A stretch of DNA of 64,000 nt from Candidatus Multivoradales bacterium (GTDB lineage: Bacteria; Acidobacteriota; Thermoanaerobaculia; Multivoradales; JAHEKO01). Made by a program: the position numbers and the translations under genes. Location of the stretch: the NCBI GenBank assembly GCA_965223855.1, contig CBDCXM010000009.1, positions 2,784,001 to 2,848,000 on the forward strand, given 5' to 3'. Shown here piece by piece: positions 12,268 through 40,353 of this stretch. The notes beneath the pieces were generated by a model. The model was not told the origin of the DNA and made no database searches. It saw nothing but the letters and a program-made list of their open reading frames with translations. How positions within the stretch are numbered: position 1 is the stretch's first letter; every line of letters begins with the position of its first letter.

Positions 12268-13368
12268 TTGGTCGAGCACGAAGAGCTCGTTCAGGACTGG
12301 GCTACGAAACTGGGCGCTTCGCTCGGCTTCGACGTCGCCACGACCAGCTGGTTGCTCGCTGCGGCGCTGTTTCTCGTCATCGTCCTCGGCATGGCGGCAG
12401 TTCGCCATGTGCTGCTGAGCCGCCTGCAGGGTGTCGTCGATCGGAGCAAGAACCTGGTCGACGATCTCGTGCTCGACCTGGTGCGCCGGACCGGCTGGCC
12501 GTTCTTCGTGATCGTCGGCATCTTCGTCGGCTCCGTGGCGCTGCGTCTCTCGCCGCCGGTCGATGCTGTGATTCGCAGGCTCTTCTCGATCGCTCTCTTC
12601 GTCCAGGGTGGCATCTGGGCCAACTACGTCCTGAGCTTCGTCGTCGATGCCTACCTCCAGCGTCGACGTGGAGAAGACGCATCGAAGGTCGCGGTGCTGG
12701 CGCTCTTCAACTTCTTTGCCCGGATCGCCGTCTGGACGTTGGTCGTGCTGCTGGTCCTCGACAACCTCGGTGTCGAGGTGGTCACCCTGATTGCCGGCCT
12801 CGGCGTAGGCGGCATCGCCATCGGCCTGGCGCTTCAGAGCGTGCTGCGTGACACCTTCGCCTCGCTGTCGATCATCCTCGACAAGCCGTTCGAGGTCGGT
12901 GACTTCATCATCGTCGACGACCTTCAGGGGACGGTCGAGCACATCGGGATCAAGACCACCCGCATTCTCAGCCTCGATGGCGAGGAGGTCGTGATCGGCA
13001 ACAACGACCTGCTCTCCTGCCGGATCCGCAACTTCAAGAAGATCGCCGAGCGCCGAGTGCTGCAGCAGCTCCGGCTCGCCTACGACACGTCACCGGACGA
13101 CCTCGATGCGATCCGCCCGATCGTCAAGGAGGTGGTCGACGAGGTGGAAGAGACGCGCTACGAGCGGGCCTACTTCAAGAGCTTCGGCCACGAGGCGGTG
13201 GAGTTCGAGTTCGGCTACTACGTCACCCGGGGAGACTTCGAGCAGATGATGGAGCGCCGCCAGCAGGTGAATCTGGCGCTCCATCGACGGCTGACCGAGG
13301 AGGGATACCGATTCGGGCTGCCATCGCGGCGCGTCTACTCGGATGACGACGGGGCGGGCGAGGGCTGA
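12268..13368 (+). CDS. Small-conductance mechanosensitive channel (MscS family)
   Basis: LIAGLGVGGIAIGLALQ, DKPFEVGDFI, GTVEHIGIKTTRI. Confidence 0.93.
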   Translation: MVEHEELVQDWATKLGASLGFDVATTSWLLAAALFLVIVLGMAAVRHVLLSRLQGVVDRSKNLVDDLVLDLVRRTGWPFFVIVGIFVGSVALRLSPPVDAVIRRLFSIALFVQGGIWANYVLSFVVDAYLQRRRGEDASKVAVLALFNFFARIAVWTLVVLLVLDNLGVEVVTLIAGLGVGGIAIGLALQSVLRDTFASLSIILDKPFEVGDFIIVDDLQGTVEHIGIKTTRILSLDGEEVVIGNNDLLSCRIRNFKKIAERRVLQQLRLAYDTSPDDLDAIRPIVKEVVDEVEETRYERAYFKSFGHEAVEFEFGYYVTRGDFEQMMERRQQVNLALHRRLTEEGYRFGLPSRRVYSDDDGAGEG

Positions 13369-14888
13369 TGCGTCGCGCGGCGGGTCTGGTCGTCCTGGGG
13401 ATGGTCGGCGCCGGCCTCGGCGTCTTCACTCCATCGATCGAGGCGAAGAAGCCGGCTCAGGTGGAGAGTCCCGAGGACCTGTACATCGTCGACTGTCTGC
13501 TGCCCCCGAGGATCCGTCGACTCGGACGGAGATCGGTGACGCAGGCTCCCCGACAGCCGATCAAGACGACGGCACTCGAGTGCCGCATCCGAGGCGGTGT
13601 CTACACCGAGCCCGACCAGGCGAACCTCGGCACGGCGCTCCAGGTCTGGCTCGCCGCCGCTCAGAGCGGTGACGCCGAGGCTCAGTTCTACGTCGGTCAG
13701 ATCTTCGAGAAGGGGCTGGGGGTCGATCCCGACTTCGGCAGTGCCGCGCAGTGGTACCGCAAGGCGGCCGAGCAGGGGTACGCGGCGGCGCAGATCAACC
13801 TCGGCTCGCTCTACGAGACGGGGCGCGGAGTCGAACAGGACGGGGAAGAGGCGCTGCGCTGGTACCGGCGCGCCGCGGGTCTGGCAGAAGACCTCGTCGT
13901 TCTCCAGAGCGAGGAGGTAGAAGACCTCCGCGCCGCGAGGGACCGTCTGGAAGCGGCCGAGCGTGAGGTGGCCGACCTTGAGCAAGAGGTGACGCGACTG
14001 CGGGAGGCCGGAGCCGCCTCCGCGGAGGAGATCCAGCGTCTCGAGGAACGGACCCGCGAACTCGAGCGACAGTCCAGCGAGGCGGAGGATCTCAGGGCGG
14101 AGCTGGAACGGCTCAGCAGCTCCTCGGGAGCTGTTCCGGCCGCAGCGGGATCGATCCCGCTGCCCGGTCCGGGCGCCGTCAACTTCGGGAACTATCATGC
14201 GCTCGTCGTCGGCATCTCGAACTACGCCTCTCTCGACTCGCTTCCCGAGGCCGCGGAGGGGGCGAAGAGGATCGCCGAGACCTTGAGACGCGACTACGGC
14301 TTCGAGGTCGAGGTCCATCTGGACGCCTCGCGCCTCACCATCATGAAGGCGCTCAACCAGTTGCGCGAGCGACTGACCCCCGACGACAATCTCCTCGTCT
14401 ACTACGCCGGCCACGCGACCCGCGACACCAGGGGGACCCGTGCGTTCTGGCAGGCGGCGGACGCGGACGCGTCGAATCCGGTGAACTGGATTCCCACCGA
14501 GCTGGTCACGGAGCACCTCGATCTGGTCCCGGCGCGTCACGTGCTGGTGGTGGCGGACGCTCTCTTTACCGGTCTTCGCACCCGTTCGGCGGTCGCCCAG
14601 TTGCGACAGGGGATGACCGACGAAGAGCGCTACCACTACCTCAGGACCCTGCGGGAGAAGCGCTGCCGGCTCGTCCTGACTTCCGGGAGCGAGGACGGAG
14701 CGGGGGAGTTCACCGGCTCTCTGGCCGGACTGCTGGAGGCGAACGACGGTCTGCTCGAGGCGTCTCAGCTCTACCGCGAACTGGTACGCGGTCGTGACGC
14801 TTCGAACGAGGGGCCGCCGCCGGAGTTCGCGTCGATGCGATGGGCACGCAACGAAGTAGCGGACTTCTTCTTCGTCCGAACCCCGTAG
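13368..14888 (+). CDS. Secreted Sel1-repeat / coiled-coil / peptidase C14 (caspase-like) protein, catalytic Cys absent
   Basis: Signal peptide; Sel1 repeats (AQFYVGQIFEKGLGV, AQINLGSLYETGRGV); C14 domain HALVVGISNY...LVYYAGHA...VVADALF. Confidence 0.85.
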   Translation: MRRAAGLVVLGMVGAGLGVFTPSIEAKKPAQVESPEDLYIVDCLLPPRIRRLGRRSVTQAPRQPIKTTALECRIRGGVYTEPDQANLGTALQVWLAAAQSGDAEAQFYVGQIFEKGLGVDPDFGSAAQWYRKAAEQGYAAAQINLGSLYETGRGVEQDGEEALRWYRRAAGLAEDLVVLQSEEVEDLRAARDRLEAAEREVADLEQEVTRLREAGAASAEEIQRLEERTRELERQSSEAEDLRAELERLSSSSGAVPAAAGSIPLPGPGAVNFGNYHALVVGISNYASLDSLPEAAEGAKRIAETLRRDYGFEVEVHLDASRLTIMKALNQLRERLTPDDNLLVYYAGHATRDTRGTRAFWQAADADASNPVNWIPTELVTEHLDLVPARHVLVVADALFTGLRTRSAVAQLRQGMTDEERYHYLRTLREKRCRLVLTSGSEDGAGEFTGSLAGLLEANDGLLEASQLYRELVRGRDASNEGPPPEFASMRWARNEVADFFFVRTP

Positions 14889-14940
14889 GCGCGAAGACGG
14901 ACCTGGGCGTCGCGCCCCGCAGTTCCGCGCGGGCCACCGC

Positions 14941-15219: not shown

Positions 15220-17310
15220 TCAGGCCCCGCTGCGCGCGACGAAGAAGAACTCGCCTCCACTGTGATCCGTCCGTGGAATCGGCGCAAACCGGGGGCGCTG
15301 GGGCATGCCCAGTGCCTGTGAGCCGTCGGCGACCGCATCGACCGTGGTCTGGAAGAGCCCGGAGGCCGCGAGCACGGCGTCGTTCGCTTCGAGCGCCTCG
15401 AGCAGCTCTCGAGCGAAGATCGAGTGGTCGCCGCCGCCCGAATCGAGTACCGGACTCAGGCCGCCCGAGGTCAGCAGCAGGCGGGACTTGTACCCGAGGG
15501 CCTCTTCGATCTCCGACGCAGAGCGCGGTGGGGGAGCGGTCTCCTCGGCGTTCCCGGGGGCGGCGAGTGCGCCGGAGAAGCACGAGTCCGCGACCACCAG
15601 CACTCGCTGCGCCTCCGTCTGGTCGAGCAGGGCACTCAAGGTATGAGTGGTGGAGATCCAGTTCGAGGTGTCGAGCGGATCGGCATCGACCGGCTGCCAG
15701 AAGCCGCTCTGGTTGCGGCCGTCGATGCGGCCGTGGCCGGCATAGAAGACGAGCAGGTTGTCGCGCGGAGTCATGCTGCTGGCCACACTCGAGAGCTGGG
15801 TGACGATCTCCGCACGGGTCGCATCGAGCAGGAGGTGGACTTCGAATCCATAGCGGTTCTCGAGCAGACCCGCCAGTTCACGGGCGTCGCGGGCGGCGCT
15901 CTCGAGCTCCGGCAGGTACTGGTAGCGATCGTTGCCGATCACGACGGCGTGGAAGTCGCCGAAGTCGAGCGCCGCGAGTGCCGAAGCGCTGGGGGCCGCG
16001 CGCGCTCTCAGGAACAGGAACGTGGCCACGGCCAGAAGTGCGACGAGGGCCAACCCGGCGACGAGGGGCGAGCGCCGGCTCCGCCACGGGACGCCGCCTT
16101 CGGTGGCGACGAAGGTGCCGGCCGGCGGTGTGCTAACCGCTGTGCCGGGTTCGGGCCTCGCCTCGGGTGAGAGGGTGGTCGCCTCGTCCCGCCCGGAGAC
16201 CGCCTGTCCTCGAGGCGGTGCGGCCACCGTCGCTCCCGCCGGCGTCGATGCCGAGGGGGACATCGTCGTTGGATCGTGCCCCGGGGGCGACACGGTCGTC
16301 GGGTCGGCTGTCGGCTGCGCCTCGCCCGGGTCGGCCTCCGGCTGCGTCCCGATGTCGCCTCCCGGCCCGGTCGGCACGGTCGAGGGCTGTAGTGGCTCGG
16401 ATTCCAGGATCGTCCGGTCGTGGCTGCCGGACTCCGACGCTCCGGCGGCGGCCGCCGCCAGCTGCGTGGCGAACTCACGCGCATCGGCGTAGCGGTCGTC
16501 CGGGCTCTTGGCGAGAGCGCGGAGCAGCACCGTTCGCAGCGGCTGCGAGACTTTGCCCTGCGGGTCGGTCTCGTCGAAGCTCCTCGGCGGATGGAACAGG
16601 TGTCCGGCGATCAACGACGTCTGGTCGGTGCCGGTGATCGGCAGGATCCCCGTCAGCAGCTCGTAGAGGGCGACGCCCAGCGAGTAGAGGTCGCTACGGC
16701 CGTCGATCGGCGCGTCGCCGCTTGCACCGAGCTGCTCCGGGGAGGAGTACCGGACCTTGCCGATGAACATCGCCGCCCGCGTCTCGAACTGCGCTCCATC
16801 GAGCGGCTTGGCGATCCCCATGTCGATGAGCTTCACCAGCAGCTCGCCCCGATGAGAGCGCGTCAGCATGATGTTGTCGGGCGAGATGTCCCGGTGAACG
16901 ACGTTGCGCTGGTGGAGATAGTCGAGCGCCTCGAGAGTCTGCAATCCGACTTCGAGGATCTGCGCCTGGGACAGCGGTGTCGGCGAGCGCTGCGTCTGGA
17001 CGAGGTCGCGGCCCTCGATGAACTCCATGACGATGCAGGCCATGCCGTCGTCGCCGACGACGAAGTCGTGAATCGCGGCGATGTTCTCGTGGCGTAGACG
17101 GGTCGCCACCTGGGCCTCCCTGAGGAAACGCGCCTGCAACTCCGCGTCGTGCTTGAGTTGAGGGCGGATCGTCTTGAGGACCCGAACCTCCTCCAGGTGG
17201 CGGTGGTGACCCTTGTAGATCTCTCCCATCCCACCTTCGCCGAGAAGGTCGAGGATCTCGTACTTGCGATCGATCTCCTCGATGCCGATGGAGAGAGGAG
17301 CGTCGCTCAT
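15220..17310 (-). CDS. Hanks-type Ser/Thr kinase - Pro/Thr linker - TM - extracytoplasmic caspase-like (C14) domain
   Basis: LGEGGMGEIY, HRDISPDN, DMG (DFG variant), YSSPEQ, SDLYSLG; TM LVAGLALVALLAVATFLFL; C14 dyad FYAGHG / VADSCFS. Confidence 0.92.
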   Translation of the reverse strand: MSDAPLSIGIEEIDRKYEILDLLGEGGMGEIYKGHHRHLEEVRVLKTIRPQLKHDAELQARFLREAQVATRLRHENIAAIHDFVVGDDGMACIVMEFIEGRDLVQTQRSPTPLSQAQILEVGLQTLEALDYLHQRNVVHRDISPDNIMLTRSHRGELLVKLIDMGIAKPLDGAQFETRAAMFIGKVRYSSPEQLGASGDAPIDGRSDLYSLGVALYELLTGILPITGTDQTSLIAGHLFHPPRSFDETDPQGKVSQPLRTVLLRALAKSPDDRYADAREFATQLAAAAAGASESGSHDRTILESEPLQPSTVPTGPGGDIGTQPEADPGEAQPTADPTTVSPPGHDPTTMSPSASTPAGATVAAPPRGQAVSGRDEATTLSPEARPEPGTAVSTPPAGTFVATEGGVPWRSRRSPLVAGLALVALLAVATFLFLRARAAPSASALAALDFGDFHAVVIGNDRYQYLPELESAARDARELAGLLENRYGFEVHLLLDATRAEIVTQLSSVASSMTPRDNLLVFYAGHGRIDGRNQSGFWQPVDADPLDTSNWISTTHTLSALLDQTEAQRVLVVADSCFSGALAAPGNAEETAPPPRSASEIEEALGYKSRLLLTSGGLSPVLDSGGGDHSIFARELLEALEANDAVLAASGLFQTTVDAVADGSQALGMPQRPRFAPIPRTDHSGGEFFFVARSGA

Positions 17311-17347: not shown

Positions 17348-18871
17348 TCAGCTCCGCGCCATCAGCAGCGTATGGAGGAGCTTGCGTTGCGCGGACAGGT
17401 ACTGGATGTCCCCGCTGGGATCGCCGCCGAAGGTCTGCTCGAGCGTCTCACCGGTGTTGGCGTCGGTCGCCTCGACCGCGATCGTGCCGTCCTCCCGATA
17501 CTGGGTGTAGACACCGATCGGGTAGTTGAGTCGCGGGTTGGGGAGGGGACCGACGTTGAGGATGCCGAGGCTCACCGCCTGCTTCGGATCGCCCGAGAAC
17601 TGCACGAAATCGAGCACCATGTTCCGCTGGTCGTGGCGGGTGGTGTAGTACGTCTTGCTGATCCGCGTCGGAAGCGGCATGTTCTTCTTGATCAGCGTGT
17701 TCACGGTGACCTCACCGGTCGTCGGGTCGATGGTGCGCACGCCGACGTTGTAGCCGGTGACCCCCTTGAGCTCCGGCGGCAGGGTGTAGGCGACCTTCTC
17801 GCCGGAGAGCTGCGCGGCGCGCAGCGAGGCGCCGTAGGCGACGGCTTTGCTCGGCTCGTGGTAGAGCACCTCCTGCTCGTCGCCGTCGAACTCCTTGCGG
17901 ACCCGATCCACGACCGCCGGCACCAGGGATGACCCGCCGACGAGAAGCGCGGTGTTCACGTCCTTCTTCGACAGCCCCGCCTCCTTGAGGCACTGCAGCA
18001 TGACGTCGATCGTCTTCTCGATGTAGCCCTTGATGGCACGAACGAACTCGTCCCGCTCGATCTCGATCTCGACCGCCTCCCGACCGAGGATGACGGTCTT
18101 GCGGACACGCGGTGTGGCCGGGCCGCAGAGCTCGATCTTGATCGCCTCCGAAGCGCGCCGCAGTTCCAGGAGCGAACGCGCCGTCGGCTCGAACTTCCGG
18201 CCGAGGGCGTTCTCGAACTGGGCGAGGATGATCTCGCCGATCCGCTCGTCGAACTCCTTGCCTCCGAGATCGGAGAGTCCTGCCTTCGAGAGGACGTAGA
18301 TACCGTTGCTGTCGAGACTCAAGGCGGTGGCGTCGAACGTGCCGCCGCCGAAGTCGTAGGCGAGGAGCACCTGATCGTGCGCTTCGTGAGTTACGCCGTA
18401 GTGAAGTGCCGCGGCGACGGGCTCCTCGATGAGGTCGAGCAGGGGAAGGTCGGCGAGCATCGCGGCGGCCGCGACCGCCTTGCGCTGCGGGTCGTTGTAG
18501 TGAGCGGGGACCGTGATCACGGCGCCGTCCACGCGGCGACCGCCGTCCGCCTCCGCGTCGAAGCGCAGCTTGTCGAGCAGCAGAGCGCCGATCCCCTCGG
18601 CGTGCCAGGCGGCACCCTTGTCGTCGAAGTAGATCGGCTCGCGCTCCCCGAAGTGCCGCTTGAAGAAGCGGATTGCGGGCAACTCCGGATGGTCCTCGAC
18701 CATGTCCTCGGCCGTGGCGCCTACGAAGGCACTGCCTCCGGTGACGACCGCGACCGACGGCGTATGAAACCGCTCCTCGTCCCACGAATCCGGGATCAGG
18801 GCGCTGGAACCGTCGGGCTGGATTCTCGAAGCGAGCGAGTAGCTCGTCCCCAGGTCGATGCCGATCTTCAT
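17348..18871 (-). CDS. Hsp70-family protein (atypical, 507 aa, no helical lid)
   Basis: IGIDLGTSYS, AVITVPAHYNDPQRKA, EEPVAAAL, YDFGGGTFD, LLVGGSS. Confidence 0.92.
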   Translation of the reverse strand: MKIGIDLGTSYSLASRIQPDGSSALIPDSWDEERFHTPSVAVVTGGSAFVGATAEDMVEDHPELPAIRFFKRHFGEREPIYFDDKGAAWHAEGIGALLLDKLRFDAEADGGRRVDGAVITVPAHYNDPQRKAVAAAAMLADLPLLDLIEEPVAAALHYGVTHEAHDQVLLAYDFGGGTFDATALSLDSNGIYVLSKAGLSDLGGKEFDERIGEIILAQFENALGRKFEPTARSLLELRRASEAIKIELCGPATPRVRKTVILGREAVEIEIERDEFVRAIKGYIEKTIDVMLQCLKEAGLSKKDVNTALLVGGSSLVPAVVDRVRKEFDGDEQEVLYHEPSKAVAYGASLRAAQLSGEKVAYTLPPELKGVTGYNVGVRTIDPTTGEVTVNTLIKKNMPLPTRISKTYYTTRHDQRNMVLDFVQFSGDPKQAVSLGILNVGPLPNPRLNYPIGVYTQYREDGTIAVEATDANTGETLEQTFGGDPSGDIQYLSAQRKLLHTLLMARS

Positions 18872-18904: not shown

Positions 18905-21037
18905 TCAGTCGGACGAACCGGGCTTGGGCTTGTTCCGGCTCCCCAACGGTGGGCGCTTGGAGGAGGCTCCGCCCGGCTTGAGGCTCGCCTTCTTGCGAAG
19001 CTTGGCGAAGGGATCCTCCGCCTTCTCCTTCTGGCCGGCGCCGGCTCCGGGCCGGGCCGCTCCGGGTCGGGCCGCTCCGGGTCGCTCGGCACCGGGCCGG
19101 GCAGCGCCGGGCCTCGCGGTGCCGGCCGCGGCAGCTCCAGGCCGGGCAGGGGTGGCGGCGCCACCGCTCTTCATCGCTTCGAGCTTCTTCAGCGCTTCAG
19201 CCGCCTCTTTGGGCATCCCCGGCTTGGCGGCTCCGGCGGCCGCTGCGGGCGGGATTCCGGCAGGCATGCCGGGGGCCGCCGGCGCGGCGCCGGCATCGGG
19301 AGTCATGATCGAGGTGAAGAAGACGATCAACTGCTGGCTCAGCGTTTCGAGGTCGGCGGCGGACGCCGAAGACTTCTTGACACCCTCCGTGACCTTCCGC
19401 TGGGAGGCGTCGAGCGTCTTCAGCTGCTTCTGCAGGATCTCCTTGTCGGCAGCCGCCTCCCGTGCCACCTGATCGGTGATCGACTTGACGGTCGTTTCGA
19501 CGAGGTCGAGGGCGTTGTTCTGCTGCTCGGAGAGGTGCCGGGAGATCGCCTGATCCCACCCCTTCTGTACCTCACCGAGAGAGCGCTTCAGATCGTTGCG
19601 CATGCCCTCGCGCGCCTTGTCGAGCTCCTTGGCTACGGTCTCTGCGCTCTGCTTTCTCGCTCCGTTGTACACGTTGACGAGACCGAAGGAGAGGAGCACG
19701 ACCCCCATCGGAATCGTGAACTCGCGGTAGGAGCGGATGAACGACAGACCGAAGGCGGAGAAGACCATGAAGAAGACCATCTGGTAGCGACGCGCGGCCA
19801 TGAAGTAATCCATCGGTCCGCGGCGCGTGATCTCACTCTGGTAGGGACGGTTGAATCCGACCGAGCGATCGACCAGGTTGGTGAGGTGACGCTCCGACAT
19901 GTGATCGAAGTGGAGCGTGACGGGCGGAGCTCCCTTCGACTCGATCAGATTCTCGAGATGGGTTTCGACCTCGCGGAACAACTCGCGCATCCGCAGCAGG
20001 TCTTCGCGGCCGACGTCGGTGAGCGATCGCGACGCTTCGTCCAGCAGGCCGTCCTGGATCTGCTTCGGGATCGTCAGGACGAAGATCTTCGGCTTCTTCT
20101 CGTAGTCGAAGTCCTCGAAAGCGTCGATCCGCGCGTCGAGCTTGTTCGTGAGAATCCCGTCGTGGGTCGCCACCAGCTCGCCCATGCGCGCGGCCGAGGT
20201 CTTGGTGAAGGTGTCGAACTTCTTCTGCAGATAGGAGCGGACGTCGCCCAGCACCTCCGTCGGGTTCCCTCCCGATCCGGATCCCTTGGCGGCCATCTGC
20301 TGTTCGAGCGAGGCTCGCTTCGAGCGCATTCCACGACCCTCGTTCTCGAGGGCCGCGGCGAACGCGCCGTGCATCGAGGCGAGGGCGCGAGATGCCGACC
20401 ACAGCCCCGCCATCCGACCCGCCTGCTGCAGCGGCGGCCTGCCGAAGCTCTCCTCCAGATTCTTGGTGTGGAGGGTCTCGATCTCGACGATCTTGCAGAC
20501 CCAGTCGTCGCGACTTCCCAGACCGGCGATCGCCTGCGCCCAGTCGCTCTCCTTCGGAGCGACCATCAGCGTGAGCGGCCGGTTCTTGACCTCGGCGATC
20601 AGGGCTTCCATCCACTCCTGGCCGGGCGATTCCTTGGAGCCCCGCGCCACGACGAGCACCGGAGCGACTCTTTCGCCGGCCTGGCGGCCGCGTCCCTGCA
20701 TCCTGCTGCGGAGCCTGACGACGGAGCAGTTGCGCTGAAGGTCGACAGGGCGCCGCTCCTCTTCCTTCTCGCCGGTCGCGAGGTCGACGATCGATTCCGC
20801 CTCCAGCCCCAGCCATTGGGCGAGGGTCCCCGTCCATTGAGGATGGAGATCGCCGAGCAGCAGCACCTCCACCTCGACGGTGCCGGACTCGACGAGCGCC
20901 AGCAGCTCGTCCGCGTTCTCACGCAGTTTGACGAGCGCCGGCGCCCTGCCGGCGGCGTCTACGGTCTCCGAGAATCCGCGAACCTGGTCGCGGACCGTTT
21001 CCGCGGCGTTTTCGGGGCTGACTCGAGCCAGGGCCAT
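18905..21037 (-). CDS. Dynamin-like membrane protein with degenerate GTPase domain, helical stalk, TM hairpin and Pro/Ala-rich tail
   Basis: N-terminal helix then VEVLLLGDLHPQWTGTLAQWLG at the P-loop position; long helical region; hydrophobic hairpin MVFFMVFSAFGLSFI / FTIPMGVVLLSFGLVNVY; adjacent to Hsp70. CDS is clear, family call is inference. Confidence 0.5.
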   Translation of the reverse strand: MALARVSPENAAETVRDQVRGFSETVDAAGRAPALVKLRENADELLALVESGTVEVEVLLLGDLHPQWTGTLAQWLGLEAESIVDLATGEKEEERRPVDLQRNCSVVRLRSRMQGRGRQAGERVAPVLVVARGSKESPGQEWMEALIAEVKNRPLTLMVAPKESDWAQAIAGLGSRDDWVCKIVEIETLHTKNLEESFGRPPLQQAGRMAGLWSASRALASMHGAFAAALENEGRGMRSKRASLEQQMAAKGSGSGGNPTEVLGDVRSYLQKKFDTFTKTSAARMGELVATHDGILTNKLDARIDAFEDFDYEKKPKIFVLTIPKQIQDGLLDEASRSLTDVGREDLLRMRELFREVETHLENLIESKGAPPVTLHFDHMSERHLTNLVDRSVGFNRPYQSEITRRGPMDYFMAARRYQMVFFMVFSAFGLSFIRSYREFTIPMGVVLLSFGLVNVYNGARKQSAETVAKELDKAREGMRNDLKRSLGEVQKGWDQAISRHLSEQQNNALDLVETTVKSITDQVAREAAADKEILQKQLKTLDASQRKVTEGVKKSSASAADLETLSQQLIVFFTSIMTPDAGAAPAAPGMPAGIPPAAAAGAAKPGMPKEAAEALKKLEAMKSGGAATPARPGAAAAGTARPGAARPGAERPGAARPGAARPGAGAGQKEKAEDPFAKLRKKASLKPGGASSKRPPLGSRNKPKPGSSD
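19040..19146 (-). repeat. 15-bp coding repeats (RPGAA/RPGAE pentapeptides)
   Basis: PARPGAAAAGTARPGAARPGAERPGAARPGAARPGAG in the C-terminal tail. Confidence 0.8.
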
Positions 21038-31174: not shown

Positions 31175-31312
31175 TCCGGTCGGTCCTTCCCATGAGGTGA
31201 GTCTCCGGGCGCGAGCTTCAGGTCGGTCCAGCCGACCGGGGGTTCGCGCCCGGCTTTGTCTCGACCACGACCGCGCGAGCGACCGAGAAGAGGAAGCGAG
31301 GAGAGGGGGAGC

Positions 31313-31970: not shown

Positions 31971-31985
31971 CGGAACCGGTCGCCT
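31840..31985. repeat. Direct repeat of a ~28-bp hairpin element (31840-31868 and 31958-31985)
   Basis: TCGGCGCCGGTAACG(A)GAACCGGTCGCCT twice; each copy is an imperfect inverted repeat GGCG-CCGGT / ACCGG-T-CGCC. Confidence 0.75.
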
Positions 31986-32106
31986 CGCGCCCAAGTCTGT
32001 TGTAGCTATGGGACTTTGCCACCGAATCGTCAAAGGTCGGCGGGGTCCCCTGCTACAGTAGCGAGTTCAGGCTCAACGACCGACTTGGACCCTGGAGGAC
32101 CCGCCG

Positions 32107-33536: not shown

Positions 33537-35445
33537 GGTGGCGGCTTTCAAGTACGCCTTCGACCGTGGTGGCACTCCGGTCGAGCTCAAGCCGGGCGAG
33601 ACGCTGATCGGTAGCGATCAGGACTGCGCGATTCGCATCGAGGGGACCGAGGCCGTGCAGGCTTCCGTCCGGATCGAGGGCGACGAGGTTTCGATCGAGA
33701 GCCGAGGCACCCAGGAGGACATCCGCATCAACGATCTCCCGGCGCGTGTCGCCGAGCTGTCGCCCGGCGACGACGTTCGCTTCGGAGAAGCCCGCCTGAC
33801 GCTCGAGAAGGGAGATTCGGGGCTCACGCTCAGCGGACCGGCGGGGAGCTTCCCACTCTCCGACGGGGAGAATCCGGTCGGACGCTCGCCCGAGGGCAAG
33901 GTCGTGCTCAACGACGGCTCGGTCAGCCGCGATCACGCGATCATCGTGGTGCTTCCGGGCCTGCGGGTGCTGATGCGGGATCTGAGGTCCTCGAACGGCA
34001 CCTTCGTCGGGGACCGCCGGTTGGGCGAGGCTCAGCTCAAGACCGGAGACACGGTGGAAATCGGCAAGGAGAAGCTGACCTTCGTCGCGACCCAGTTGCC
34101 GGGGGCCGCCGCCCAGCCGGCCGCGTCCTCGGGACCGAAGGAGTTCAAGCTCCTCGTCGGTACGGAGCTCAGGCCGCTGTCGCCCGGCCGCTACTCGATC
34201 GGCCGCTCGGCCGACCGGGACATCACGGTTGAGGACAACGAGGTCAGCGGCAATCATGCCGAGATCGTCGTCACCGCCGATGCCGCTCGCCTGCGCGACG
34301 TCGGGTCGAGCAACGGCACCCGTGTCAACGGACAGCAGATCTCGGGCGAAGTCGTCCTCAAGGACGGGGACACGATCTCGATGGGCCGCTCGGACCTCAT
34401 GTTCACGGCGCCGGTGGGCGACGCCGGTCTCGACAAGACGGTGCTCTCCGGCTCCCTGCCCGACCTCGGCAAGACGGTGGTCTCGGGAGGGGCGGGAGCC
34501 CCCGCGATGCCGCCGCCGCCGGCGAAGGCGACGCCGGATTCGCCGCTCGCGCTTCTCGATCTTCAGCCGGGAGCGTCGCAGGAGGCGATTCAGAAGAAGT
34601 TCCAGGAGCTCTACTCCGAGTACCAGATCCGGCTGACCAACGCCCCGACTCCTGATCTCAAGAACAAGTTCCAGCAGAAGCTCGAGGAGCTCCAGGCGGC
34701 CAGGGACAAGCTGATCGCGCCGGCCGCCGCAGGCGGCCTCGACCTGCCGGCGGCCGAGCCCGTTCACGGTAGCGCGGCTCCAGAGCCGCCGCCGGCGCCC
34801 GAGCCGGCTCCTGAGCCGGCGCCGCCGGCCGCGTCGAAGGGGCGCAAGAAGAAGGCGAAGCCGAAGAAGGCGGCAGCCGCCAAGGCGCCGAAGCAGGCCC
34901 CTGCCGAGCCCGGAGAGCGTTTCCCGGCTTCGGCGAAGGTCATGGCGGTGATCAGCCTGGTCGCCATTCTCGCGACGGCGGGACTGTGGGTCTTCAGTCG
35001 CTCGGCGATCACCGCCTCCGCCGACAAGGTGCAGGAGCTGGCGGATCTCCAGGCCAGTATCGTCGCCATGCAGGAGCGCATCCCGCAGGCCGAGCAGGAG
35101 ATCCTCGAGCTCCAGGAAGGGAAGATGTCGCTGCTCGAGAACAGCGAGTTCAAGATCTGCAACCTGTCGTCGGCGAGCGTGTGGGTCGTCTGGCTGCATT
35201 CGACCTATGTCAGCGACGACGGCAAGTTCCAGAGCTTCGACAGCGCCTTCTTCGACTATGAGACGTGGGAAGTGCCGGCCGGCGGCACGGTGAAGTTCGG
35301 CTACGTCAAGGACGACCAGGTCGTGTGGGACGGTTCGACCGTCTTCTTCACGGTCCTGATGCAGTACCGGGGCAAAGAGATCTTCCGCTCAGGAGCCTGG
35401 AGCGGGATCGGTAGCGACTGCTACAACCTCGCGCTCGACAACTGA
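33529..35445 (+). CDS. 3x FHA - J-like domain - Pro/Lys linker - TM - coiled coil - outer beta domain
   Basis: FHA motifs GRS..SRDHA..SSNGT and GRS..SGNHA..SSNGT (first FHA degenerate); PLALLDLQPGASQEAIQKKFQEL...KLEELQAARDKL; TM VMAVISLVAILATAGLWVF. Confidence 0.85.
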   Translation: MPEVAAFKYAFDRGGTPVELKPGETLIGSDQDCAIRIEGTEAVQASVRIEGDEVSIESRGTQEDIRINDLPARVAELSPGDDVRFGEARLTLEKGDSGLTLSGPAGSFPLSDGENPVGRSPEGKVVLNDGSVSRDHAIIVVLPGLRVLMRDLRSSNGTFVGDRRLGEAQLKTGDTVEIGKEKLTFVATQLPGAAAQPAASSGPKEFKLLVGTELRPLSPGRYSIGRSADRDITVEDNEVSGNHAEIVVTADAARLRDVGSSNGTRVNGQQISGEVVLKDGDTISMGRSDLMFTAPVGDAGLDKTVLSGSLPDLGKTVVSGGAGAPAMPPPPAKATPDSPLALLDLQPGASQEAIQKKFQELYSEYQIRLTNAPTPDLKNKFQQKLEELQAARDKLIAPAAAGGLDLPAAEPVHGSAAPEPPPAPEPAPEPAPPAASKGRKKKAKPKKAAAAKAPKQAPAEPGERFPASAKVMAVISLVAILATAGLWVFSRSAITASADKVQELADLQASIVAMQERIPQAEQEILELQEGKMSLLENSEFKICNLSSASVWVVWLHSTYVSDDGKFQSFDSAFFDYETWEVPAGGTVKFGYVKDDQVVWDGSTVFFTVLMQYRGKEIFRSGAWSGIGSDCYNLALDN

Positions 35446-35554
35446 TCGAGCGCGAAGCACGGTGACGGCGGGCGGAAGCTCGCACAACCGCAGATGCGCC
35501 ACAGTGGATGTAACGGGCGCCCATTCCGGGCGCCGGTATCGGCGTGGGGGAATC

Positions 35555-38500
35555 ATGAGGAACCTGTTTTCGTGCTCTGCAAGCGTGGGTTTGTGGACGT
35601 GTTCGTTCCTGGCACTGCTGCTGGTCGGTAGTGCACCGGCGGCTGCGGGTGAGTTCTTCTTCGTGTCGAACCCGAGCGTCGCCGAGGGCGACAGCGGCTC
35701 GGTCGATGCCGTCTTCACCGTGTCTCTCCTTCCACCCCGGCTCGAGGGGTGCGGGATCGAGAGCTTCCGCTACGCGACGGTGGACGTGACGGCCACGGCC
35801 GGCATCGACTACGGCGCGACGTCGGGCGCATTCACTCTCGACGGCTGTGATCCGGACACGCCGATCGACATTCCGGTGCCGGTCTTCGGAGACGTCGTCG
35901 ACGAGGGGGTGAGCGAGACCTTCCTCTTCAGGGTCACGTACGTCGAGACAGGGACCGAATTCGACGGTACGGGGACGATCGTCGACGACGATGCCGCAAC
36001 GATCTCGATCGCGGACAGCTTTCTCACCGAGGGAGACAACGGCACGCGGGACATGGTCTTCACGGTGTCGATGACCTCACCGTTCGATCTCGATGTCCCC
36101 ATCGATTTCGCGACCGCGGACGGAACGGCGACGGCGCCGGCGGACTACCGCGCAACCTCGGGTCGAATCATTCTGGCGTCGGGAGCGACGAGCGTCGACA
36201 TCGTGATTCCGGTCGAGGGAGAGCTGTTGGTCGAGGCTGACGAAACCTTCGCCGTCGACATCGCCCTCGGCCCGGGCGGTCCATTCCCACCGATCGTCGA
36301 TGCCCAGGGGATCGGGACGATCGTCGACGACGATTCGGTCGAGGTCTCGATCGCCGACACCACTGTGGTGGAGGGGGACAGTGGAACGACCGACGCCCTC
36401 TTCACGGTCTCCCTCTCGGGCCTGTCGGCGGAGTCGGTCTTCGTCGACTATCGGACCTCGAACGGTACCGGAAAGGCCGCCAGCGACTACCGCGCCACCT
36501 CGGGACGGATCTCGATCGCCCCCGGCGACTCGTCGGCGACGATCTCGGTGCCGGTCTTCGGCGATCTCGAGCCGGAGGGGGACGAGAGCTTCTTCGTCGA
36601 TCTGAGCGGCGCCGTCGGTGCATCGCTCGCCCGGACGAGGGGGGTAGCGACGATCGTCGATGATGACGGCGGCTCCATTCTCTCGCTGCTCGCCCCCGGG
36701 ACCGTTTCCGAGGGTGGCGGAGCGGCGACTCTCGTCGTCGAGCGGACGGGAGATCTCACTCAGGCCGCTTCGGTGGTCGTCGATGCGGCCGCCGGAACGG
36801 CCACCGCCGGCCAGGACTTCACGGCCACGACCGAGACGCTCGTCTGGGGAGCCGGGGTTGGAGGGACCCGAACGCTCGAGTTGCCGATTCTCGACGACAA
36901 CGAGATCGAGGGGAGCGAGTCCGTGGTGGTCACGCTCTCACAGCCGGCCGGAGCGGCCCTCGGAACCTCGACGGGCGAGCTGACGATCAACGACGACGAC
37001 GAGCCGCAGCAGGTCCAGATCGTCGGCGATCCGGTGCAGGTGACGACGGTGGAGGAGACGGCCGAGCTCACGGTCCGGGTTCTCGATACGGCCGGCGAGC
37101 CGATCCAGGGAGCGACGGTGGAATGGTCGGTCGATGGCGACGCGAGGCTCCTGGGCGAGCCGGTCGATGCGACCGACTCCCAGGGGGAGAGTCGCCAGTC
37201 GGTCGAGCTCGGAGAGGTCCCGGGCCGGGTCGTGGTGACCGCCACTCTGACCTCGACCGGACAGTCGATCCAGTTCGATCTGACGGCCGAGGGAAACCTC
37301 AGAAGGCTCTTTCCGTCGAGCGGCCTTCCGACCGGCGAAGCGTCGGTGGCAGGAGTTCTCGATCTGGCCTGTATCGATGCGACCGGGCAGTTCGGCAGCT
37401 TCTGCGACTACCTCTTCACGTTGCCGGGCCCGGGCGACCAGCTGGCGGTACTCGGTGAGGTGACACCCGAAGAGACGCCGGCGCAGGCGACGATCAGCAT
37501 GGAGTCGGCACAGACTCAGCTCGGCAACATCACCGCGCGCCTCAAGGCCCTTCACGGCGCGGGCACGCGGCAGGCGATCGACCAGTTGGCGCTGACGATC
37601 AACGGCCGTTCGGTGCCGTGGCAGGCGATCGTCGCGGCGATGGCTCCGGCGAAGGAGTTCGAGCTTCCGGACTTTGCGGCCGAGCTGGCGCCGCAGGACG
37701 ATGCCGGGGACTCCGGAGCGGCCACGGGGCCGATCGACGTCGATGCCGACGCCGCGCCCAGGCTCGGGTTCTTCGTCAACGGCAGGATCTCCATGGGCTC
37801 GCGCGACGAGACGTCCTCGGAAGAAGGCTTCGACGTGGACTCGAGCGGGATCACCACGGGGATCGACTATCGGGTCAGCGATCGGTTCATCGTCGGCGGA
37901 GCGCTCGGCTTCCTGGACACCGACCTCGAACTGGTTCGCGACGGCGGAGCGCTCGACGCCGAGGGGTACTCGCTGGCGGTCTACTCGACCTACTTCCGCG
38001 ACCGCTTCTACCTCGACACGATCGCCGCCATCGGGCGCAACGACTACGAGATCTCACGCCATGTCGACCTCGGGATCCCCTTCCAGGGGAGGAATCGCTG
38101 GATCTCCCGGGCCACTCCTTCGAGCGATCAGCTTTCGCTCGCTCTGTCGAGCGGTTTCGACCGCGTCGTCGGAGCGAGCACCGTCTCGCTGTTCGCCGGC
38201 GCTTCGTACGTCGAGGCGCAGATCGACGAGTACCGCGAGTCCGGCGGCGGGCCGTTCGACCTCATCCTTCGGCAGCAGGACGTGACTTCGCTTCTTTCCT
38301 CCGGGGGCCTCGAGTGGAACTACGCCTCGAGCCGCGACTGGGGGATCCTGCAGCCGACGGTACGGGCAACCTACCTCCACGAGTTCGATGACGACTCACG
38401 GCTGATTCGTGGCCGCTTCGTCGGCGACGTGACCGCCGGTGAGTTCGTGCTGGCGACCGACACCCCGGACAGGGACTACTTCAACCTCGGCGCTGGACTC

Positions 38501-38611
38501 ACGTTCGTGCTGCCGAAAGGACGCTCGATCTTCGTCTACTATGACGCCGATCTGGAGCGCTCGGACCTCGACCTCTACACGCTCTCATTCGGCGCGCGGT
38601 GGGAGTTCTGA
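35555..38611 (+). CDS. Autotransporter adhesin with ~4 Calx-beta domains and an Ig-like domain
   Basis: Signal peptide; repeated (V/T)EG(D)..FTVS...T.DGTA....DY....G...E.DE.F.V....G.GTIVDDD; beta-barrel ending GARWEF. Confidence 0.9.
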   Translation: MRNLFSCSASVGLWTCSFLALLLVGSAPAAAGEFFFVSNPSVAEGDSGSVDAVFTVSLLPPRLEGCGIESFRYATVDVTATAGIDYGATSGAFTLDGCDPDTPIDIPVPVFGDVVDEGVSETFLFRVTYVETGTEFDGTGTIVDDDAATISIADSFLTEGDNGTRDMVFTVSMTSPFDLDVPIDFATADGTATAPADYRATSGRIILASGATSVDIVIPVEGELLVEADETFAVDIALGPGGPFPPIVDAQGIGTIVDDDSVEVSIADTTVVEGDSGTTDALFTVSLSGLSAESVFVDYRTSNGTGKAASDYRATSGRISIAPGDSSATISVPVFGDLEPEGDESFFVDLSGAVGASLARTRGVATIVDDDGGSILSLLAPGTVSEGGGAATLVVERTGDLTQAASVVVDAAAGTATAGQDFTATTETLVWGAGVGGTRTLELPILDDNEIEGSESVVVTLSQPAGAALGTSTGELTINDDDEPQQVQIVGDPVQVTTVEETAELTVRVLDTAGEPIQGATVEWSVDGDARLLGEPVDATDSQGESRQSVELGEVPGRVVVTATLTSTGQSIQFDLTAEGNLRRLFPSSGLPTGEASVAGVLDLACIDATGQFGSFCDYLFTLPGPGDQLAVLGEVTPEETPAQATISMESAQTQLGNITARLKALHGAGTRQAIDQLALTINGRSVPWQAIVAAMAPAKEFELPDFAAELAPQDDAGDSGAATGPIDVDADAAPRLGFFVNGRISMGSRDETSSEEGFDVDSSGITTGIDYRVSDRFIVGGALGFLDTDLELVRDGGALDAEGYSLAVYSTYFRDRFYLDTIAAIGRNDYEISRHVDLGIPFQGRNRWISRATPSSDQLSLALSSGFDRVVGASTVSLFAGASYVEAQIDEYRESGGGPFDLILRQQDVTSLLSSGGLEWNYASSRDWGILQPTVRATYLHEFDDDSRLIRGRFVGDVTAGEFVLATDTPDRDYFNLGAGLTFVLPKGRSIFVYYDADLERSDLDLYTLSFGARWEF

Positions 38612-38643
38612 CGCAGCGGATCGACGGAGCGAGCGGGCCGGCT

Positions 38644-40353
38644 TCAGCCGGTCTCGCGCTTGAGCATCACCAGCGTCCGATCGTCGTGAAACGGCGTGCC
38701 GTCGGCGAAAGCGAGGAGCGCCTGGTCGACCGCATCCGAAATCTCGTCGAGAGGGCGATGAGCGTTCTCCTTCAGCAGGGCGATGAAGCGCTCGTCCTGG
38801 AACTGCTCGCCCGACGGGTTCTCCGCTTCGACGACGCCGTCGGTGAACATCGCGAGCAGATCGCCGGGCTCGAGCGTGACTTCACCGATCTCGTACTCGG
38901 CCCCGGGCACCATTCCGAGAGGGAACCCGGTCGCCTCGAGCTCCTCGACTTCGCCCGAAGTCCTGATGACGAGCGGCGGATTGTGTCCGCCGTTGACGAA
39001 GCGCACCGTGTTTTCGTTGGCGTTCGCCGCTACCATGAAGGCGGTCGCGAAGCGGTCGGGCGGCGTTCGCTGGTAGAGCGCCTGGTTCGCGCCCGCCATG
39101 ACGTCGGCGGGCGAAGTGATGCCGGCTTCGATCAGCGCCGAGCAGGTTGCCTCGAGAGAAGCTGCCAGAAGCGAGGCACCCATTCCCTTGCCACAGACGT
39201 CCACGATGAGCACCAGCGCTTCGTCCTCGAGCCCGGAGGCCTGGTAGTAGTCGCCGGAGACACCGCGCGACGCGTCGTTCTGCGCGGCGATCGAGAAGCC
39301 GTCGAGCTCGGGCAGCGACTTTGGAAGCAGCGACACCTGGAGCTTGCGGGCGAAGGCGAGCTCAGACTCGAGCTTTTCGCGCTCGGCGGCACTCTCCGCG
39401 AGGATCAGGTTGTGGAGACGCAGCGCCGTCACCGAGGCGAGCGCGGCGAGCAGTTCGAGATCCTCCTCGTCGAAGCTCTTGTGCTGGAGGCCGGAGCTGA
39501 GCGAGATCATGCCGAAGCACTCTTCCTCGTAGAGGAGGGGGGCAGCGCAGAGACTCTTCGCGCCGGAAGCGAGCAGACTCTTGGAATCGGCAAAGCGCTC
39601 GTCCGACTGAAGGTCGAAGGCGAGGGCCGCCTGGCCGCGCTCTACGACCTCGCGGACGAGCGTCTCCGACACCTTGTCGGGAGCGTCGTCGTCGGCGACC
39701 GAACGCCAGGCGCGAACTTCGAGGCCGTCGTCGCTGGACAGAAGCACCGTAGCCTCTTCCGGCTGCAGGTGCTCGAACGCTCCGTCGAGGACGAGCTCGA
39801 GCAGCTCGTCGACGGCGATCGACTCGCCGAGGGCGCGATGCAGCTCGGTGAGGAGCTTCAGGCGGTCGGCGTAGCGTTGCAGTGCGTCGTCGCCGGCGGC
39901 AGCGGGCGCCGGCTCGGCCGGCAGCAGCTCGGTCATCGGGCGAAGCATCGTGACGCCGTCTCCGCCAGCCGATGCCGGGTTCGCAGAGGGAGGTTGTGCC
40001 GCAGGAGGCTGAGCAGGAGGAGGGTCGGCCGGTTCCGCTTCGGGCTCTGCTGCGGGCTTCGGTACCGGCGGATGGATGCCGACTTCGGTTTGCGAGGCGC
40101 GGACGACGTCACCCGTCGTCACGGCGGTCGGGGCCTCGAGGCGCCGTCCGTTGAGGTACGTGCCGTTGCTGGAGCCGAGGTCCTCGACGAAGAGCGCGCC
40201 CTCGCTTTCGAAGAATCTCAGATGACGCCGGGAGAGGACGGCGTCGTTGATGACCAGATCACAATCCGGGGCTCGACCGAGTACGAGAGAGCCCCCCTCG
40301 AACGAGACGTCGCGTTCCGGCGCCTCGGCGGAAACCACCTTGAGCTGATACAT
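38644..40353 (-). CDS. FHA - GAF - PP2C/SpoIIE (RsbU-like) phosphatase
   Basis: GRAPDCD..LSRRH..DLGSSNGT; GAF region; VSGDYY, VDVCGKG, NGGHNPP, FTDGVVE, DDRT. Start set at ATG 40353, 7 nt after TAGAAT. Confidence 0.92.
   Translation of the reverse strand: MYQLKVVSAEAPERDVSFEGGSLVLGRAPDCDLVINDAVLSRRHLRFFESEGALFVEDLGSSNGTYLNGRRLEAPTAVTTGDVVRASQTEVGIHPPVPKPAAEPEAEPADPPPAQPPAAQPPSANPASAGGDGVTMLRPMTELLPAEPAPAAAGDDALQRYADRLKLLTELHRALGESIAVDELLELVLDGAFEHLQPEEATVLLSSDDGLEVRAWRSVADDDAPDKVSETLVREVVERGQAALAFDLQSDERFADSKSLLASGAKSLCAAPLLYEEECFGMISLSSGLQHKSFDEEDLELLAALASVTALRLHNLILAESAAEREKLESELAFARKLQVSLLPKSLPELDGFSIAAQNDASRGVSGDYYQASGLEDEALVLIVDVCGKGMGASLLAASLEATCSALIEAGITSPADVMAGANQALYQRTPPDRFATAFMVAANANENTVRFVNGGHNPPLVIRTSGEVEELEATGFPLGMVPGAEYEIGEVTLEPGDLLAMFTDGVVEAENPSGEQFQDERFIALLKENAHRPLDEISDAVDQALLAFADGTPFHDDRTLVMLKRETG

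Follow-up and report, generated by a model that had tools for sequence, protein, structure and literature searches.

Gene content of the locus

We analysed a 64,000-nucleotide (nt) stretch of the genome of a Candidatus Multivoradales bacterium (Acidobacteriota; contig CBDCXM010000009.1, positions 2,784,001 to 2,848,000), hereafter called the window. It holds two divergent gene rows, one of which carries adjacent genes for an Hsp70 and for a membrane protein with a predicted dynamin fold, and the other a gene for a membrane-anchored adaptor with a J-like domain. These three proteins are the core of a conserved, so far undescribed Hsp70-centred membrane system, which is found in Acidobacteriota and in Bacteroidota-type loci. 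The genome has a size of 4.5 Mb and a GC content of about 67%, and the high GC content leads to many spurious open reading frames (ORFs) in the window. Real genes were chosen by third-position GC and by matches to Pfam and NCBIfam, and both lines of evidence back every gene listed in a preliminary description of the locus, whose inventory and coordinates are correct.

The leftward row comprises, in this order, a STAS gene, the gene for the dynamin-fold protein of 710 amino acids (aa), the gene for the Hsp70 of 507 aa and a gene for a kinase joined through a transmembrane (TM) helix to a caspase-like domain. A Sel1/caspase-like gene on the plus strand converges on this row. The rightward row starts with a giant repeat protein of 1987 aa and continues with three helical subunits (B, C and D), a degraded copy of D, an Lcl_C protein, a 177-aa TM protein, the 638-aa FHA adaptor and an autotransporter; here, the convergent gene encodes an FHA-GAF-PP2C protein. 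Judged from the coordinates, both operons are as tightly packed as initially described, with intergenic gaps of 16-41 nt or overlaps of 4-8 nt.

Conservation of the gene set

The preliminary description had proposed one conserved multi-gene system and had set co-occurrence in other genomes beforehand as the test that could refute it. The genes are indeed found together in 15 further loci, which belong to about eight lineages and of which several are near-duplicates of each other (single loci are referred to below as G401, G278, L002, L006, L017-L019, L021, L023 and L024). Three of the 15 stop within or at the gene for the dynamin-fold protein. In all 12 loci in which the downstream gene could be assessed, it encodes an Hsp70 of 505-509 aa. 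Adaptors with J-like and CN domains (see below) adjoin this pair in G401, G278, L006, L023 and L024, that is, wherever the flanks allow. The system is single-copy in the genome of the window.

Around this core, the gene content varies with the lineage. Bacteroidota-type loci contain the core without helical proteins, STAS, kinase or caspase within the flanks seen, and the Acidobacteriota loci add the helical subunits A to D and a protein consisting of a CN domain only. In the Thermoanaerobaculia-type clade, to which the window belongs, a STAS gene lies upstream of the dynamin-fold gene (nine of the 15 loci) and the giant-repeat gene diverges from it (eight loci). STAS, kinase-caspase, pseudo-caspase and autotransporter genes recur only within this clade, and the PP2C gene was seen only in the window, the flanks of the other loci ending before its position. 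Therefore, phosphorylation gating is an add-on to the system and not its essence. The preliminary description had made such gating a defining property; the genes for it are indeed present in the clade of the window, but they are clade-specific and lie outside the conserved core.

The gene order differs among the window, G401, G278, L019 and L021, and the linkage persists despite these rearrangements, which argues for function over mere descent. This bears on the possibility that there is no single system at all, with only the Hsp70 and the dynamin-fold protein functionally linked and the remaining genes neighbours by descent in one clade. Many of the loci do come from related Thermoanaerobaculia-type lineages, and L002 even has the housekeeping flanks of the window. 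But in G401 the pair has moved to the other side, onto the strand of the A-D genes, and still adjoins them; in G278 the order differs again, with the adaptor, the CN protein and A-D retained; and the rearrangements in L019 and L021 have left the linkage of the kinase-caspase pair and of the autotransporter intact. We consider such a mere neighbourhood by descent very improbable.

A dynamin fold without a P-loop

The dynamin-fold protein (18905-21037, minus strand) is recognised by its fold only. It has no match to any Pfam or NCBIfam family at E<=0.01, neither to Dynamin_N nor to MMR_HSR1. Besides the alpha/beta domain at its N-terminus, the protein has a helical stalk, a hydrophobic hairpin (about residues 415-460) and a tail that is disordered and rich in Ala and Pro. 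An AlphaFold2 (AF2) model based on an alignment of 25 sequences reached a pLDDT of 77.6, and a Foldseek comparison of this model with the PDB returned BDLP, the Campylobacter pair of dynamin-like proteins (DLPs), IniA and LeoA as its top seven matches (E 1.8e-7 to 1.2e-5, probability >=0.99), followed by the eukaryotic proteins Mgm1, MxA, Drp1 and OPA1. The corresponding TM-scores are low (0.15-0.20), which we read as expected for flexible multi-domain conformers. Its neighbours in the ESM Atlas are Pfam-less clusters and Dynamin_N clusters. Hence, the fold bears out the earlier designation of this protein as dynamin-like.

The head domain lacks the Walker A motif GxxxxGK[ST] in all 56 family members checked, the single match being a chance occurrence in the low-complexity tail. 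The strand-loop-helix equivalent to the P-loop reads G-x-L-H-P-x-W-T, with an invariant Trp (W68) at the position of the lysine. On the basis of the model and these alignments, we assign to the protein a predicted dynamin fold with a membrane hairpin and a degenerate nucleotide site without a P-loop. It thus resembles the bacterial DLPs BDLP, DynA, IniA and LeoA/LeoBC (Eleos) in its modelled alpha/beta head, helical stalk and membrane hairpin, and would be expected to associate with the membrane, but differs from them in that it has no Walker A motif, is encoded by one gene instead of a DLP pair and has an Hsp70 as its constant neighbour. Since the P-loop is missing family-wide, an action like that of DynA or LeoA is not to be assumed.

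An exhaustive profile search gave 420 cluster representatives of this family with E<=1e-3, of which 279 reach E<=1e-10; lengths of 550-600 aa predominate. The ten representatives that we looked up, all of the short form, are labelled as hypothetical proteins. For four of these ten, the longest contig is as long as that of one of the listed module Hsp70s, which gives no more than a hint of adjacency. A dynamin-fold family without a nucleotide site in any member, yet conserved across phyla, would be known here for the first time, and one may ask what drives a dynamin scaffold if not GTP.

A divergent Hsp70 and its J-like adaptor

The Hsp70 gene (17348-18871, minus strand) matches Pfam HSP70 with 3.2e-70 over profile positions 104-493 of 599. 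Its product contains the nucleotide-binding domain, the beta part of the substrate-binding domain and just the beginning of the lid. The alignment reaches only to about DnaK residue 546, in agreement with the earlier description of this Hsp70 as lid-less, and all 11 module Hsp70s compared end at about DnaK residue 545-548 of 638, so that most of the lid is gone. The ATPase motifs IDLGT, FKR, EEP and DxGGGTFD are kept in all 11 proteins. In the same 11 proteins, the DnaK positions R167 (to D or G), N170 (to E), T173 (to V) and Q378 (to R or H) are altered, and the interdomain linker VLLL is replaced by LPPE(L/F)(K/R)G.

In a tree of these 11 proteins with E. coli DnaK, HscA and HscC and the two ordinary DnaKs of the genome itself, the module Hsp70s form a separate clade (100/100, stem 1.97). 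The protein stays far below the NCBIfam equivalog cut-off, with 228 versus 648 bits. At least 294 relatives were found at E<=1e-100; among the 120 listed, nearly all are 504-512 aa long, and relatives are labelled "Hsp70 family protein" or "DnaK". DnaK, HscA and HscC are the only bacterial Hsp70 types recognised in the sections at hand of a review (PMC8215388). From its sequence, the module Hsp70 appears to be a dedicated, rewired type outside the clades of all three.

The putative partner of the Hsp70 is the 638-aa adaptor (33529-35445, plus strand; Pfam FHA 2.4e-39, Yop-YscD_cpl in three stretches). It contains two to three FHA domains and, at about residues 335-395, a J-like domain. By prediction, the protein is bitopic: the J-like domain is cytoplasmic, and a basic stretch and a single TM helix (464-492) separate it from the CN domain in the periplasm. 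A profile built from five J-like segments and searched against PDB sequences matched DNAJB8 (1.7e-4), DNAJA3 (3.6e-3) and DNAJB6 (5.4e-3), and most of the 43 proteins listed are J proteins, so that the J-like call of the preliminary description is upheld. The segment is conserved beside the Hsp70 in distant loci. Instead of HPD, it carries T-N-A within an invariant L-x-N-A-x-T-P (motif LTNAPTP), and no protein of the cluster contains an HPD tripeptide. To our knowledge, HPD has been reported as essential in every tested system.

According to the consulted part of the review mentioned above, D35 of the J-domain HPD bonds R167 and Q378 of DnaK, and H33 bonds the linker at L391 (PMC8215388). Since HPD is lost in the J-like domain and R167, Q378 and the linker are altered in the Hsp70, both sides of this contact have changed together. 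If the two proteins do work with each other, the Hsp70 would represent a further dedicated class, in which the allosteric linker is different and the J-type partner does not need HPD.

The CN domain is a periplasmic domain with conserved Cys residues, for which no Pfam or NCBIfam model exists. It is also found in the small 177-aa protein (33003-33536, plus strand; CN hidden Markov model (HMM) 1.3e-39), which consists of a TM helix (4-34) followed by CN and is a paralog of the adaptor C-terminus. This confirms the outer domain that had been noticed as common to the two TM proteins. Orthologs consisting of CN only are encoded in G401 (202 aa) and G278 (184 aa). The four FHA domains counted in the preliminary description are plausible, with two to three in the adaptor and one in the PP2C protein; the adaptor ortholog in G401 has three.

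The nearest functional analogue of this arrangement, though not an orthologous one, is E. coli HscC with its tail-anchored partners DjlB and DjlC: as far as the cited review sections go, this is likewise a dedicated, divergent and shortened Hsp70 beside membrane-anchored J-type partners (PMC8215388). The module Hsp70 differs from HscC in that it falls outside the HscC branch and has lost R167 and Q378, and the J-like domain differs in lacking HPD. HMM comparison of the dynamin-fold protein with E. coli DjlB and DjlC revealed no similarity. In E. coli K-12, the hscC locus (676000-690000) contains the Sel1-repeat genes ybeQ and ybeT and DUF1266 genes beside djlB/djlC; Sel1-repeat genes thus occur near both E. 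coli hscC and the module Hsp70.

In eukaryotes, Hsc70 and auxilin act in uncoating together with dynamin, and chloroplast Hsp70B and CDJ2 remodel VIPP1. By functional analogy, these systems may be compared with the module, as in each of them an Hsp70 and a J adaptor remodel a membrane-bound assembly of the helical or dynamin type. Homology is limited to Hsp70, the J fold and the dynamin fold, and the module lacks the GTP site and HPD.

Helical subunits and the repeat arm

All-vs-all BLAST and HMMs revealed four orthologous groups of helical proteins: A, the C-terminal ~300 aa of the giant protein; B (28278-29279, 333 aa); C (29304-30230, 308 aa); and D (30272-31174, 300 aa), all on the plus strand. 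B, C and D have orthologs in L018, G401 and G278. Only the window, L018, G401 and G278 have flanks long enough to be judged, and all four show the fixed order A-B-C-D with one copy each. The relationship between B and the giant C-terminus is visible only through the orthologs and HMMs, as direct BLASTP was not significant. The preliminary description had counted four helical paralogs downstream of the giant protein. Three of them (333, 308 and 300 aa) are real, but the supposed fourth is a pseudogene copy of D (31256-32010, plus strand; 56% identity to D over 166 aa), and the true fourth member is the giant C-terminus. Within this copy, the 198-aa ORF at 31256-31852 is frameshifted and internally deleted, and D-like C-terminal pieces continue in another frame.

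A to D are acidic and amphipathic over their whole length. Compared with 100 shuffles of each sequence, the hydrophobic periodicity of about 3.55 residues exceeds all of them, as for subunit C (period 3.57 residues, power 268 versus a shuffle maximum of 106) and subunit D (3.56 residues, 245 versus 78). The C-termini of B and D are Gly/Ala/Thr-rich, hydrophobic and rich in GxxxG/T, and this segment is conserved in B. No signal peptides were predicted on A-D or on the giant protein. Relatives of subunit B are very rare, with five among 5.8 billion proteins, and its best score in the ESM Atlas was 0.81, which is under the usable range.

The giant protein (22281-28244, plus strand; Pfam Decapeptide 2.7e-87) has an isoelectric point of 4.05. 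A block with a 10-residue period (1-370) is followed by about 90 nonapeptides of the type ELKEEFxLx (371-1165; 27-nt period), about 23 19-mers (1166-1700; 57-nt period) and the helical A domain (~1700-1987), as determined by TRF and autocorrelation. Along the nonapeptide array (24001-26000), the GC content drops to 0.57 and the GC skew rises to +0.28; GAG, GAA and AAG codons make the coding strand purine-rich here. With units of 9, 19 and 10 residues, the repeats might form a beta-helix of the pentapeptide type. Subunit A is the C-terminus of the giant protein also in G401, but a stand-alone protein of 297 aa in G278. Therefore, the repeat arm is a clade-specific addition. Matches of the giant protein to DUF982, Baculo_PEP_C and NPV_P10, and of A-D to apolipoprotein, ApoLp-III and phasin families, stayed below the curated cut-offs and were treated as compositional. 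A tripartite alpha-pore-forming toxin of the Hbl/Nhe/Ahl type was also considered and rejected: the sole match was to NheA (E 0.003; 16.5 versus 500 bits), and the proteins have no signal peptides.

Long amphipathic helices throughout A-D, a very long and regular arm of ~90 and ~23 tandem units, and stoichiometric single copies in a fixed order would also suit a cytoskeleton-like or compartment scaffold, in which A-D and the arm form a stable fibre or lattice anchored by the dynamin-fold protein and the Hsp70 is a mere assembly chaperone. But the arm is missing in G278, the Bacteroidota-type loci lack the whole helical set in the flanks covered, and no known cytoskeletal family was matched. 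A static scaffold of this kind is therefore improbable in our view.

Signalling and envelope components

The kinase-caspase protein (15220-17310, minus strand; Pkinase 1.1e-43, Peptidase_C14 1.5e-19) combines a cytoplasmic Ser/Thr kinase with a TM helix (413-440) and a periplasmic caspase-like domain. Its counterpart is the secreted protein encoded at 13368-14888 (plus strand; Sel1 2e-20, Peptidase_C14 2.6e-12), which consists of Sel1 repeats, a coiled coil and a pseudo-caspase. According to TM and signal prediction, both caspase-like domains are extracytoplasmic. In the kinase-linked domain, His and Cys are kept in four of four loci. The Sel1-linked domain keeps His, and its Cys is absent in five of five loci, so that the pairing of an intact caspase-like domain with a pseudo-caspase, as initially noted, holds. 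The kinase-caspase gene is tied to the module in L002, L019 and L021, and the Sel1/pseudo-caspase gene is found in L002, L017 (where the set is partial), L019 and L021. In L021, two kinase genes lie beside the module (6949-12515), one of them encoding a kinase-caspase of 1176 aa; the kinase arm is thus expanded in some lineages.

The phosphatase gene (38644-40362, minus strand) encodes FHA, GAF and SpoIIE (PP2C) domains with E-values of 2.2e-18, 3.4e-13 and 3.3e-50, respectively. The first leftward gene (21065-21982, minus strand) encodes a STAS domain at 21065-21403 (STAS 1.6e-12; anti-sigma antagonist superfamily 3.8e-15), preceded by a winged helix-turn-helix (wHTH)-like domain and a linker. 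The STAS domain scores 55.7 bits on TIGR00377 (cut-off 53.45) and carries a DSAG motif, and a SpoIIE phosphatase is also present in the cluster. We take DSAG to be the motif with the phosphorylatable Ser. Family scans revealed no HATPase-type anti-sigma kinase among the cluster proteins.

In the ~880 nt upstream of the STAS domain (21404-22345, minus strand), an Arg-rich wHTH-like domain is conserved in six loci, in frame with STAS and without a stop. Therefore, the STAS gene probably starts near 21982. This N-terminal domain gave weak winged-helix matches and is single-copy in the genome. The helix-turn-helix segment presumably resembles transposase N-termini, and a transposase remnant in the 880-nt gap between STAS and the giant gene was considered and rejected, as the segment is single-copy and its conservation is at the protein level, in frame and in six loci.

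Three further products are predicted envelope proteins. The Lcl_C/DUF1566 protein (32107-33006, plus strand) is secreted, with a hydrophobic N-terminus and a signal peptide; its Pfam Lcl_C match (6.5e-7) is under the curated cut-off, and its G401 ortholog, which likewise follows subunit D, is above it (1.4e-10). The autotransporter (35462-38611, plus strand) has a passenger with four Calx-beta domains (2.1e-43) and a Big_1 domain. Its barrel (Autotransporter 2.8e-50) covers Pfam profile positions 1-255 of 255, in keeping with the C-terminal 12-strand translocator of the type Va class, and a homolog with 41% identity over 886 aa adjoins the Hsp70 in L017 and L019. The small CN protein is the third. 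All the pairings proposed in the preliminary description are thus present as genes: Hsp70 and J-like domain, kinase, FHA and PP2C, STAS and PP2C, and intact and pseudo-caspase.

FHA/kinase/PP2C triads gate the assembly of type VI secretion systems (T6SS). The T6SS set of PpkA, PppA and TagH-Fha likewise consists of a Hanks kinase in the membrane together with a PP2C and an FHA protein, and the adaptor matches the TagH model with 7.8e-19, although with 68.8 bits versus a cut-off of 120. This similarity is one argument for export or surface assembly, in which the Hsp70 and the J-like adaptor would hold the giant protein and A-D unfolded and hand them to a membrane route dependent on the dynamin-fold protein, the autotransporter, Lcl_C and CN proteins being envelope parts. 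In addition, components are predicted in the cytoplasm, inner membrane, periplasm and outer membrane, and an outer-membrane gene recurs beside the module (the autotransporter in L017 and L019, a DUF481 outer-membrane protein in G278, an outer-membrane barrel in L006). These outer-membrane neighbours are not mutually homologous, however, and in the Bacteroidota-type triad no protein suggests itself as cargo; signal peptides are missing from A-D and the giant protein. Moreover, family scans of the cluster proteins found no secretion ATPase, secretin or other translocon core, be it of T6SS or T7SS, as stated already in the preliminary description, and between 8.6 and 47 kb no ORF matched a family of the T6SS core (TssA-M, Hcp, VgrG). 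Export hence seems a poor explanation of the cluster.

Proposed mechanism

The combination of these features suggests an Hsp70-powered, phospho-regulated membrane scaffold, to which we assign a probability of about 0.4. In such a scaffold, the adaptor would tether the Hsp70 at the inner membrane and tune it through the rewired J/Hsp70 interface. ATP hydrolysis by the Hsp70 would then power the assembly, opening or disassembly of oligomers of the dynamin-fold protein on the membrane. We propose the Hsp70 as the energy source because the dynamin-fold protein cannot use a canonical GTP site. In Acidobacteriota, the amphipathic subunits A-D may be a co-polymer or a client of this machine, and in the clade of the window subunit A would bear the acidic repeat arm of ~1,700 residues. 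The periplasmic caspase-like domain of the membrane kinase, together with its secreted pseudo-caspase/Sel1 partner, might sense an envelope signal; the FHA domains on the adaptor and the PP2C protein would read threonine phosphorylation, which PP2C would reset, and the wHTH-STAS protein could yield a partner-switching or transcriptional output. Envelope or membrane remodelling or repair under stress seems the most likely physiological role.

A more far-reaching version of this scaffold is conceivable, in which the Hsp70 ATPase replaces GTP hydrolysis as the motor of a dynamin fold via a co-evolved, HPD-independent interface and builds or dismantles a four-subunit helical coat with an acidic arm of tens of nanometres, gated by a periplasmic caspase-like sensor kinase. 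We regard this full version as doubtful. Should the mechanism be true, dedicated bacterial Hsp70 machines would be of four kinds instead of three, and prokaryotes would have a counterpart to the logic of auxilin, Hsc70 and dynamin.

Several observations weigh against a membrane scaffold of this kind. A J-like domain without HPD may not stimulate ATPase activity, in which case the Hsp70 would be a holder or switch and not a motor, and the loss of Walker A does not strictly rule out another mode of nucleotide binding in the dynamin-fold protein. The separate position of the module Hsp70s comes from a tree with three E. coli references only and with long branches. The AF2 model of subunit B, calculated from a six-row alignment, is all-helical, but with a pLDDT of 41.8 it is unusable for a fold search. 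In the flanks covered, G401, G278 and the Bacteroidota-type loci have no kinase, caspase or STAS gene. Finally, the very sparse distribution and the integrase context of one locus, described in the following section, agree no less well with an accessory or defence island than with housekeeping repair.

Distribution and a possible role in conflict

The system is sporadic. In the phylum of the window, it was found in two of 401 sampled genomes, its own genome included, a number that comes from a stricter first look and is a floor; in Bacteroidota, it was found in two of 301, which include the seed genome and one marginal match. In the Bacteroidales locus L006, the region immediately upstream of the triad (3650-6491) carries genes for a tyrosine integrase and a Fic/DUF4062/HATPase_c_4 protein. 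This context suggests a mobile or island setting.

Both observations would fit a role in conflict, in particular an anti-phage system of the abortive-infection type, which is the main rival to the membrane scaffold. Here, the CN and caspase-like domains would sense invasion, kinase/FHA and Hsp70 would act as a threshold switch, and A-D and/or the dynamin-fold protein would be latent membrane-damaging effectors, for which the GxxxG/T-rich hydrophobic ends of subunits B and D might be suited. Dynamin-like proteins are known from defence, as exemplified by DynA, which acts in phage defence according to the part of the source consulted (PMC8844932), and by the LeoA/LeoBC models in PADLOC. The caspase-like proteases score on the model for EACC1-associated caspases (caspase_w_EACC1), although with 80.1 and 60.7 bits they remain under its cut-off of 140, and no EACC1 protein was identified, no dedicated model having been run. 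Similarity of the kinase to the PD-T4-6 and MADS6 models was also seen, but it is of the generic Hanks-kinase type.

Other results speak against defence. Family scans of the cluster found no nuclease, NADase, TIR domain or other recognised effector. A scan of viral contigs with a short-form alignment of the dynamin-fold protein returned no relative. The flanks of the window and of L002 are housekeeping genes in conserved synteny and not a defence island. In PADLOC, the Hsp70, STAS, FHA adaptor and PP2C proteins had no match, and the helical proteins gave weak ZorA, Leo, LmuB and JetC matches of the coiled-coil type. The locus does not classify as Eleos either: the dynamin-fold protein has a weak LeoBC match on its stalk (3e-5) and subunit D has coiled-coil-type matches, but there is no second DLP gene. 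PHROGs matches of A-D, CN, Lcl_C and the dynamin-fold protein were limited to weak tape-measure and tail hits, typical of low-complexity helices. Taken together, we consider a conflict role unlikely, though well worth keeping in mind beside the membrane scaffold.

Comparison with described multi-gene systems

The searches of PADLOC, Pfam, NCBIfam and the full-text literature (subscription journals and supplements lay outside the search) revealed no described module of a dynamin-fold protein and an Hsp70, so that the absence of a match to any described system, as claimed initially, held. One statement of the preliminary description needs revision: it had presented the pairing of dynamin-like with Hsp70-like proteins as known, and no paper supporting this was found.

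Two types of conflict systems share components with the module. In the sections consulted, the DO-GTPase/GAP1 systems contain Hsp70 (at times without the peptide-binding domain), DnaJ fusions, kinase/PP2C and caspase-type peptidases; their defining components are active TRAFAC DO-GTPases and GAP1, frequently accompanied by GrpE or tubulin, and the term "dynamin" does not occur in the available text of that article (PMC7159879). Among the cluster proteins, Pfam, NCBIfam and PADLOC found no GTPase family, no GAP1 model was among those run, and family scans did not detect GrpE or tubulin. CoCoNuT systems, as far as described in the part of the source at hand, contain with CnuD an Hsp70 with degenerate ATPase motifs alongside McrBC-type GTPases and nucleases (PMC11090510). 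On that account, CnuD and the module have in common an Hsp70 unit of nucleotide- and substrate-binding domains in a non-housekeeping multi-gene system beside a GTPase-class protein. In contrast to CoCoNuT, the ATPase motifs of the module Hsp70 are intact and McrBC genes are missing.

Neither Pfam nor NCBIfam has a model for the dynamin-fold protein, CN or A-D, and new annotations could be given to hundreds of metagenomic proteins that currently go under "hypothetical" or "DnaK". With its three genes, the version of the Bacteroidota-type loci is compact enough for direct tests of membrane remodelling or phage defence.

Neighbouring genes

The cluster is flanked on its left side by genes for an MscS-type mechanosensitive channel (12268-13368, plus strand) and a Na+/alanine symporter (10409-11764, plus strand). 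Both are syntenic with the cluster in L002, and the MscS gene also in L019. Further to the left, an ORF at 8631-9959 (plus strand) contains a spore-photoproduct-lyase-like (SPL) domain (E 5.9e-13). Rfam at gathering thresholds gave no match in the region of 13-42 kb of the window. From 42453 to 47208, long overlapping ORFs are present on both strands that match no family and have a higher GC content at the first than at the third codon position. Directly beside the PP2C gene, a prokaryotic ligand-gated K+ channel of the glutamate-receptor type (SBP_bac_3, Lig_chan, Ion_trans_2) is encoded at 40409-41590 on the plus strand.

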